IMG/VR virus record: IMGVR_UViG_3300014204_000132 | From: a virus | Taxonomy: Duplodnaviria > Heunggongvirae > Uroviricota > Caudoviricetes | DNA: 64,000 bases | Strand: one strand, 5' to 3' | Part shown: positions 13,265-13,450 of the stretch, one piece after another | Numbering within the stretch: position 1 is the first letter of the stretch | Layout of the letters: the number at the start of each line of letters is the position of its first letter | The notes under the pieces: generated by a model | Told to the model about the DNA's origin: nothing | Databases searched by the model: none | What the model saw: only the letters and a program-made list of their open reading frames with translations | Program-made: the position numbers and the translations under genes

Positions 13265-13450
13265 TCAAGCGAGAAGGATTCGAACCCCCGACCTCACACA
13301 AGTAACATTTGAAATTACCACCTTACATGTTCTGAGATTCATGTGTGTCAATTACTCACTCACTCCACTCTTAATTATATAATTAGGTAATTTCATCTGT
13401 CCAATCCGAAGACTGATGTATGCGCTCTGAACCAACTGAGCTATCGCCCG
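13265..13450 (-). tRNA. tRNA gene interrupted by an insertion of about 110 nt in the anticodon loop
   Basis: On the minus strand the acceptor stem CGGGCGA/UCGCUUG (7 bp, 2 G-U) pairs perfectly. U8A9 are present. D-arm GCUC-AGUUGGUUCA-GAGC. T-arm GGGGG-UUCGAAU-CCUUC. The 5-nt variable loop is AGGUC. The anticodon stem 5' CAUAC (13418-13422) pairs with 3' GUGUG (13295-13299). The two halves are separated by about 110 nt (approx 13301-13411). Confidence 0.55.

Follow-up and report, generated by a model that had tools for sequence, protein, structure and literature searches.

An interrupted valine tRNA gene with a structured insert before its anticodon in a huge phage

What does a phage make from a transfer RNA (tRNA) gene whose anticodon loop is broken open by a long stretch of additional sequence? 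The question is raised by a locus at positions 13265-13450, minus strand, of a 64,000-nucleotide (nt) stretch of a caudoviricete genome (IMG/VR record IMGVR_UViG_3300014204_000132), the whole of which is referred to here as the window. An original prediction, made from the sequence alone, had described the locus as a tRNA gene split in the anticodon loop by an insertion of about 110 nt. The split gene is real, and the net insertion is 111 nt. It is a conserved and selected tRNA-Val gene that carries a selected, structured insert 5' of the anticodon, and it is a distinct, previously undescribed form within the interrupted tRNAs of huge phages. The insert may well be a new kind of intervening RNA that is cut out and rejoined by proteins to give tRNA-Val, a proposal held here with slightly less than even confidence.

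A covarying cloverleaf and a three-way junction

The gene extends from C1 at 13450 to the discriminator base A73 at 13265, and CCA is not encoded. The acceptor stem CGGGCGA/TCGCTTG (13450-13444 and 13272-13266), the D arm GCTC-AGTTGGTTCA-GAGC (13441-13424; GCUC-AGUUGGUUCA-GAGC as RNA) and the T arm GGGGG-TTCGAAT-CCTTC (13289-13273) can be read directly from the sequence, together with A9, G26 between the D arm and the anticodon stem, and a 5-nt variable loop (AGGTC). The nucleotides of tRNA tertiary structure are complete (U8, A14, G18G19, G15-C48, G53-C61 and UUCGA). The anticodon stem CAUAC/GUGUG lies at 13422-13418 and 13299-13295, exactly where the original prediction had placed it, and the sequence motifs listed there are all present at correct coordinates. 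The two strands of this stem are separated by 118 nt, which gives the net insertion of 111 nt. With a 118-nt insertion allowed, the Rfam tRNA model RF00005 matches the locus at 33.0 bits (E 3.7e-5; gathering threshold 29). The usual anticodon loop, seven uninterrupted nucleotides with U33 and a purine at 37, is missing: the gap is 118 nt, and position 37 is a U at all junctions.

Default ARAGORN found no tRNA in the 64-kb window. When intron models were used, a gene was called at 13264-13450. Its assignment by ARAGORN as Leu(aag), which requires a long variable arm and an intron of 90 nt, is implausible and breaks the covarying anticodon stem; a Ser(cga) call for the related locus L139 was rejected because it likewise breaks the covarying anticodon stem. 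According to the original prediction, the tRNA should be given up if none emerged once the insert was computationally removed. After removal of the insert in silico, default ARAGORN called a tRNA in four of four copies at nearly every junction, and the best BLAST matches of the spliced form were phage tRNA-Val genes. Standard tRNA finders thus overlook such genes, and the tRNA inventories of huge phages are incomplete as a result.

Is the interrupted gene maintained by selection? Close copies were reached through topoisomerase synteny (which extended to three genomes only), through DNA-pattern scans and through the downstream gene. Four further distinct copies were obtained: L001 (the same as L133), L128 (the same as L131), L132 and L145. 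The identity of their inserts is 78-91%. The cloverleaf and the three-way junction described below were tested for covariation over four sequences (the window, L001, L128 and L132). Standard pairs occupy 98.2% of the pair cells, and 14 pairs have changed on both sides, six of them in the acceptor (four) and T (two) stems and eight in the insert. In the controls, slid partners gave only one or two double-changed pairs, and none of 500 shuffles reached the observed values. The stems of the exons change faster than the insert yet remain paired. In the L128 copy (L128:16172-16359), T-loop positions 54 and 58 are changed, and the insert retains compensatory changes.

The insert is a three-way junction built on the anticodon stem and composed of a hairpin (H1) and a long, covarying, irregular rod. 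The minimum-energy folds of two copies independently give the same three-way junction. The anticodon stem is lengthened by an A32-U38 pair, and H1 (CAGUC-UUCG-GAUUG, 13402-13415) starts 2 nt after the stem; one of its G.U pairs becomes A-U in L128. A junction helix of 4 base pairs (bp) follows, in which GACA (13398-13401) is paired with UGUU (13307-13304), the last U being U34 in a G.U pair; an A-U pair of this helix is replaced by C-G in L128. A tandem purine mismatch, G-A (13397-13396) opposite A-A (13309-13308), leads into a 10-bp long-range helix formed by UGAAAUUACC (13386-13395) and GGUAAUUUCA (13310-13319), with three double-changed pairs. The distal rod (13320-13385) contains the helices UUAUAU/AUGUAA, GAG/CUC, GUG/CAU and GUG/CAC, separated by conserved internal loops, and adds four double-changed pairs. 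It ends in a 9-nt apical loop, AGUAAUUGA (13356-13348), which reads (A/U)GUAAUUGA over the copies.

The smaller structures that the original prediction had seen inside the insert give way to this fold. Its UUCG tetraloop is UUAGCG in other copies and is therefore not a conserved structure. The ACAUG/CAUGU hairpin occurs in the window copy only and is displaced by the covarying fold, the hairpin resembling an anticodon arm (GUAAU-UUCAAAU-GUUAC) lies in the region of the 3' strand of the long-range helix and is replaced by that helix, and the palindrome is a window-specific coincidence superseded by the conserved fold. The insert also contains a 14-codon frame (ATG...TAA, 13394-13350, minus strand) that no copy interrupts, provided that TAG stands for glutamine; its third codon is TTA, TAG, TAG or CAG, and its variable sites number six, four and three at codon positions 1, 2 and 3. 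It was rejected as coding, as there is no third-position bias and the covariation of the helices accounts for the pattern. A sigma-70-like sequence, TGGACA-N18-TATAAT (11 of 12 positions; 13374-13403, minus strand), is found inside the insert and is partly kept in other copies, and the apical loop includes TTGACA. These promoter-like matches are probably due to chance in AT-rich sequence.

A valine anticodon and a wider family of interrupted genes

Which amino acid would the gene specify? In the Val-UAC reading, the 111-nt intervening RNA (13305-13415) is placed between U33 and U34. The 5' exon (13416-13450) then comprises the 5' strand of the acceptor stem, the D arm, CAUAC and A32 U33 (13417-13416), and the 3' exon comprises U34 A35 C36 U37 U38 (13300-13304) followed by GUGUG, AGGUC, the T arm, the 3' strand of the acceptor stem and A73 (13265-13299). 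In the fold, U34 is paired with the G at 13401, A35-C36-U37 form a 3-nt bulge, and U38 faces A32. The predicted junction of the exons joins ...GCGCAUACAU to UACUUGUGUGAGG... and gives the loop A-U-U-A-C-U-U. The anticodon is that of valine, with UAC as the most economical reading and CAC as a possible one. The original prediction had offered CAG (Leu) or CAC (Val); a variable loop of 5 nt and the N-A-C that all distant homologs keep at this place make leucine unlikely. The U at position 37 that it had singled out as unusual is indeed there at every possible junction. The main identity elements for valyl-tRNA synthetase (ValRS) are A35, C36 and A73.

More distant phage contigs were reached through homologs of MT177, a methyltransferase-like protein encoded downstream of the tRNA (12485-13018, minus strand), and ten lineages were sampled. 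An interrupted tRNA is present upstream of the MT177 homolog in nine of the ten and directly upstream in eight; in L147 it lies 1.1 kb upstream, with an open reading frame (ORF) of 347 amino acids (aa) in between. In L149, whose protein is 50% identical, there is no interrupted tRNA within 3 kb of the homolog. The inserts are 102-145 nt in length and differ in sequence, but they always lie 5' of the anticodon, and the anticodon is always NAC (valine). Their divergence is such that a model of the window-type insert (type A) misses the distant forms.

The five bases that lead into the 3' strand of the anticodon stem are UACUU in the window type and L143, AACUU in the first of two genes in L146 (L146a) and in L150, AACAU in L139, L141 and the second L146 gene (L146b), and GACAU in L147. 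In L148 they are AACAA, and the whole loop there, on the 3' side, is the canonical CUAACAA. Among the forms, then, A35 and C36 never change, whereas the wobble base does and position 37 holds either U or A; the odd U37 is therefore a subgroup trait.

When the anticodon stem is constrained, all inserts fold to one plan. H1 begins 0-2 nt past the 5' stem strand, a closing helix joins the sequence that follows H1 to that immediately 5' of the anticodon, the anticodon nucleotides stand in the 3' strand of the junction, and the distal domain is variable. A purine-rich core of about 75 nt is common to the larger inserts, and the window type lacks it. RNAalifold left the fold undefined when it was applied to two type C inserts. 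Rfam searches (E up to 10) gave no family for the insert in the window, L139 or L143. The two interrupted tRNA-Val(AAC)-like genes of L146 (L146:2126-2339 and L146:2376-2582) stand in tandem and have different tRNA frames; their inserts are related through a common GGAGUGUCGU...GCUAACGA hairpin.

Searches outside this locus returned little else. A covariance model of the insert, which misses diverged forms, turned up no further copy when 161 kb of related sequence were scanned. Anchor-pattern scans of viral contigs and GTDB genomes with GTAATTGACAC...ATGTAAGGTG at the right gap returned only the known loci and chance matches in GC-rich coding DNA, both viral and GTDB. The short pattern GGATTGGACAGATG hit more than 120 chance loci, and GTAATTGACAC...ATGTAAGGTG at the wrong gap gave one chance promoter-like match (L130). 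No DNA match was found in an annotated phage collection.

How might the transcript begin and end? A promoter-like site, TTAAAA-N18-TATAAT (13525-13554, minus strand), lies about 75 nt upstream of the tRNA in a block that is conserved between the window and L001. At the other end, a sequence resembling the hepatitis delta virus (HDV) ribozyme begins at the base after A73 in L001, L132, L133 and L145; it is absent after the tRNA in the window copy and in L128. Against RF02682, the F. prausnitzii HDV-ribozyme model, the L001 element (L001:17560-17627) reaches 32.2 bits, below the gathering threshold of 44. Its helices were drawn by eye (P1 AGUAAUC/GAUUACU, P2 UUAAAC/GUUUAA, P3 ACC/GGU, P1.1 GC/GC and P4 CAAUC/GAUUG), and its J4/2 segment, CUAA, holds a C; the variation among the four loci is too small for covariation. 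At L001 17647-17714, after the ribozyme-like sequence, there is a long hairpin with a U tail. Upstream of the window tRNA, the Rfam DUF805b motif (RF02914) matches 13571-13603, minus strand, at 40.3 bits (gathering threshold 35.6). This match, situated just past the ORF at 13607-13936, precedes the tRNA by about 120 nt, and the corresponding stretch of L001 is not conserved.

Theta ribozymes are described as trimming the 3' trailers of gut-phage tRNAs in phages whose predicted hosts are about 90% Bacteroidota; in that study, 4.5% of the tRNAs encode CCA and 54.5% of the phages encode an RNA ligase of the DRB0094 family (Kienbeck et al., 2024; PMC10879173). The sister copies resemble theta ribozyme-tRNA pairs in the HDV-like element after A73, the missing CCA and a likely host of Bacteroidota type; unlike those pairs, the window copy has no ribozyme, and interrupted tRNAs are not discussed in that paper. 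The window tRNA and the L001-type ribozyme were not found in the portion of its supplements that was searched. The resemblance of the element after A73 to theta ribozymes suggests, therefore, that the sister copies are handled as tRNAs at their 3' ends.

Precedents and competing explanations

The nearest precedent for the insert is found in the Lak megaphages, whose genomes of about 540 kb have a GC content of 25.9-26% and in which 'enigmatic' highly conserved tRNA introns of 79-114 nt with no Rfam match were described (PMC6784885). No mechanism or follow-up for these introns was found in the searchable literature. Both cases concern an AT-rich megaphage and a conserved anticodon-loop insert of roughly 80-115 nt with no Rfam family or splicing mechanism, and the two share, loosely, a small 5' hairpin followed by a domain closed by a long-range helix. 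The differences are larger. The Lak introns follow the anticodon (between 36/37 and 37/38, with the anticodon in the 5' exon), whereas the insert described here precedes it (33/34). The closed domain of the Lak introns is a mini-tRNA with its own GGTTCGAATCC arm after an A-rich linker, whereas here it is a rod without a T-arm motif. Uninterrupted alleles and canonical spliced loops exist for the Lak introns, which occur in tRNAs for Tyr, Phe, Thr and Gly; here no intact allele was found and the tRNA is always that of valine. No sequence similarity between the two was seen on inspection. The insert is thus a different family from the Lak introns, which have gone unexplained since 2019. As a second case it is structurally different and much better constrained, by a covarying three-way junction, a fixed insertion point, one tRNA identity, a linked methyltransferase-like gene and, in some lineages, RNA-repair genes nearby.

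It has been stated that only introns of group I and group II have been identified in bacteria, and bacterial group I tRNA introns share with this insert their position in the anticodon loop, their invisibility to tRNA finders and their capacity for ancient retention (PMC13011429). The original prediction considered the insert too short for a typical group I intron, and the covarying fold bears this out: a hairpin and an unbranched rod in 111 nt cannot accommodate a P3-P9 core or a G-binding P7. Natural group I introns are, to our knowledge, about 200 nt or longer. U33 precedes the insert, and the last base of the insert at the Val-UAC junction is U in all type A copies except L128, where it is G, so that a terminal omega-G is lacking in most copies. 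RF00028 gave no match at E up to 10; since this model can miss divergent tRNA introns, the exclusion of group I rests on size and fold. Group II introns, with six domains including domain V and several hundred nt, were also rejected on the basis of the 111-nt length and the lack of an Rfam match.

Archaeal and eukaryal introns with a bulge-helix-bulge (BHB) motif, in which a 4-bp helix stands between two 3-nt bulges that lie on opposite strands and carry the splice sites, span a range of 11-129 nt (PMC4090602). The present insert falls within this range and has one 3-nt bulge (ACU) beside a 4-bp helix (GACA/UGUU), and non-canonical insertion positions are known among archaeal tRNA introns. Unlike in the BHB motif, the second bulge is replaced by the 2x2 G-A/A-A mismatch that runs into the covarying 10-bp helix, and the host is bacterial. 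A BHB intron was rejected because cuts at the predicted sites would divide the anticodon and would not remove H1 from the exon. Transfer-messenger RNA was rejected as well: ARAGORN finds none, G3.U70 is present in the window copy only, and the ORF of the insert is non-coding. Models of hammerhead, HDV-like, twister, pistol, hatchet and hairpin ribozymes gave no match at E up to 10 in the insert or in those of L139 and L143. The engineered tRNA scaffold, in which a structured RNA replaces the anticodon loop, has the same topology in an unspliced form (Ponchon and Dardel; PMC3753655); it is a man-made chimera, processed and stable in bacteria, whereas here the anticodon nucleotides stay beside the insert.

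How, then, could a tRNA arise from this locus? Transcription would start at the conserved promoter-like site upstream. RNase P would make the 5' end, and in the sister phages the HDV-like 'theta' ribozyme would set the 3' end exactly after A73. A protein endonuclease that recognises the tRNA body and the junction would excise the intervening RNA, the tRNA halves would be sealed by an RNA ligase of the tRNA-repair type encoded by such phages, and the product would be a tRNA-Val(UAC) with the unusual loop given above. Splicing is favoured because N-A-C stands at the canonical distance from the stem, because the loop of L148 is canonical and because varied inserts occupy one site; such variety is easier to reconcile with an enzyme whose recognition features are the tRNA and the junction than with a ribozyme dependent on a single conserved core. 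A capacity for cutting and rejoining is suggested by the DRB0094 ligases of theta-ribozyme phages, by an RNA_ligase gene (PF09414; L148:1-554) that precedes the interrupted tRNA of L148 by about 2.2 kb and by an RlaP-family nucleotidyltransferase (PF10127) two genes upstream of the tRNA in L150 (24-1118) and L152 (35-1084). Interrupted phage tRNAs as such have a precedent in the intron-containing tRNAs of Lak megaphages (PMC6784885).

Several observations weigh against protein-mediated removal. Neither a spliced product nor a junction read nor an uninterrupted allele came to light: the joined Val-UAC exon pattern had no match in the metagenome collection, scans with the invariant 3' block, which could match intact alleles too, returned interrupted copies only, and default ARAGORN called no intact tRNA in any locus searched. 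Every possible 7-nt loop has U37, A32 is able to pair with U38, and neither the form of L139, L141 and L146b nor that of L147 has a U33 at any simple junction. The 64-kb window encodes no ligase, RtcB or splicing endonuclease. The conservation of the insert (78-91%, against 74-88% for the neighbouring coding DNA) is beyond the need of a passive spacer, and the L128 copy keeps its insert well while two acceptor-stem pairs of its tRNA part are AxC mismatches and its T loop reads CUCGUAU. Most of these points would suit an RNA that is never spliced, in which the tRNA serves as a frame for processing, stability and possibly charging by ValRS and the inserted domain is the working part. Such a composite RNA, somewhat doubtful but the main competitor, would be processed by RNase P, trimmed at its 3' end and given CCA, and possibly charged through the exposed A35-C36 bulge and A73; it could act as a partner of MT177 or as a decoy for host defences directed at tRNAs. 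The gene is never uninterrupted among the ten lineages and is tightly linked to the methyltransferase-like gene, the sequence and structure of the insert are under purifying selection, odd loop positions are tolerated (U37 in four forms, U33 missing in two), the tRNA part of L128 is relaxed whereas its insert has been preserved, the constrained folds of most forms leave A35 and C36 without a partner at the junction, and RNAs engineered into the anticodon stem of a tRNA remain stable in E. coli (PMC3753655). A scaffold, however, has no need of a valine anticodon spaced canonically from the stem or of the CUAACAA loop of L148, and the inserted domains differ greatly while the linked protein remains 50-87% identical. 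No natural tRNA-scaffold RNA was found in the literature searched, and we know of no natural example from a phage.

Might the RNA itself do the cutting? A new small self-splicing or self-cleaving RNA, with its ends sealed by RtcB or another ligase, or with both steps carried out by RNA, would make sense of presumed splice sites that are adjacent in a covariation-supported junction, of internal and apical loops that are invariant among type A copies, and of the purine-rich core shared by the larger inserts; HDV-like ribozymes already serve the same tRNAs at the 3' end. It is unlikely all the same, as the family is so shallow that invariance carries little weight, the three regions scanned gave no Rfam ribozyme or intron match, and the rod forms (window type, L143 and L147) and the core forms (L139 and L148) have no catalytic-looking core in common. 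A hammerhead was rejected because the CAGAUGA box differs from CUGAUGA and the GAAA partner is missing. A little less probable again is a cis-acting leader of the methyltransferase-like gene, with the tRNA-like fold as a processing, punctuation or regulatory signal. The tRNA does lie on the same strand and immediately upstream of a homologous gene in most lineages, and a promoter-like site is present upstream of the tRNA only, with no terminator-like site in 12900-13700. Against a leader, the HDV-like ribozyme separates tRNA and gene in L001, L132 and L145 (with the U-tailed hairpin in addition in L001), an ORF intervenes in the window (73 aa) and in L147 (347 aa), and the valine anticodon and the full set of tertiary nucleotides are left unexplained. 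Besides a spliced intron and a regulatory RNA carried by a tRNA scaffold, both of which still stand, the original prediction had suggested a mobile insertion that inactivated the tRNA. A dead gene disrupted by a palindromic element, such as one of the miniature inverted-repeat transposable elements, would explain the 10-bp terminal inverted repeats of the rod (TGAAATTACC...GGTAATTTCA) and the degraded look of the tRNA part of L128. This explanation is largely refuted and very improbable: the acceptor stem, the T stem and even the terminal repeats carry compensatory changes, the insert is conserved and present in a single copy in the related sequence with no other contexts in the viral and GTDB collections, and the gene has been kept at one locus across lineages, in some with a dedicated 3' ribozyme.

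With an insert that matches no known class of intron and no uninterrupted copy in related phages, the locus looks like an undescribed way to build or use a tRNA. Tentatively, and with confidence clearly short of even, it may represent a third kind of intervening sequence of bacterial-type genes, distinct from group I and group II and defined by the three-way junction, which is either removed by a phage endonuclease and a repair ligase or not removed at all; if not removed, it would be a tRNA-shaped, possibly valine-charged RNA working with MT177, for example as a specificity or regulatory subunit. How phages remove or use such inserts is approachable with a 186-nt transcript and a few candidate proteins.

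The linked methyltransferase-like gene and its genomic setting

MT177 is a 177-aa catalytic domain of an adenine-N6-type amino-methyltransferase, with motif I LEPSAGSG and motif IV (A/C)P(P/T/N)(F/Y). An alignment-based model reached a predicted local distance difference test (pLDDT) score of 88, and a single-sequence model (pLDDT 36) was useless. The model is nearest to the catalytic domains of the gamma-class adenine-N6 DNA methyltransferases TaqI, BseCI, CamA and PacII (template modelling scores of 0.72-0.78 on the query), and MT177 lacks the target-recognition domain present in these enzymes. A profile search with MT177 also matches the rRNA adenine methyltransferases Erm and KsgA, and the modelled fold does not separate DNA from RNA substrates. 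The linkage of MT177 and the tRNA is an observation rather than an explanation. The homologs P0121-P0197 form a family of about 172 aa, again with no target-recognition domain.

The gene order is orf100-orf109-tRNA-MT177-orf162, and the relatives L127 and L129 lack the entire cassette. Between the tRNA and MT177, a 73-aa ORF (13023-13244, minus strand) starts 20 nt past the tRNA. It has no counterpart in L001, L128, L132 or L133 and takes the place of the ribozyme of the L001-type sisters. The product of orf162 (11997-12485, minus strand; 162 aa) is 84-86% identical in L001 and L128, and L132 ends before it. Its sole match is PHROG 4786, 'cysteine dioxygenase' (possibly cupin-like), with no match in Pfam, NCBIfam or PDB. 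In L139 (4860-5000) and L146 (2583-2720), the tRNA and the methyltransferase-like gene are separated by a conserved spacer of about 130 nt with a long closing helix (AAUCGUUCU.../...AGAACGAUU); an Rfam scan of the L139 spacer, covering its first 40 nt or so, gave no match. This spacer may be another structured RNA.

The window has a GC content of 26.5%; among its genes are those for a fused T4-type topoisomerase II and a UvsW-like helicase, with many small ORFs besides. The topoisomerase sits on a contig of 678,337 bp, and its nearest annotated relatives, at 51% identity, are in the 735-kb 'huge phage' genomes LR756501/3; the window therefore comes from a Lak/Mahaphage-like megaphage, about 680 kb in size. 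Group I introns were not detected in the window, which encodes two GIY-YIG proteins (one of them at 40305-41363, minus strand) and one NUMOD1-matching ORF, which may or may not be one of these two; these ORFs resemble free-standing homing-endonuclease-like genes. Near the end of the window, a 392-aa ORF (61583-62758) with a weak match to an arginyl-tRNA synthetase-type catalytic domain lies upstream of a class I synthetase of the methionyl-tRNA synthetase type (63022-63999, plus strand; PF09334, E 3e-61), which runs off the end of the window.

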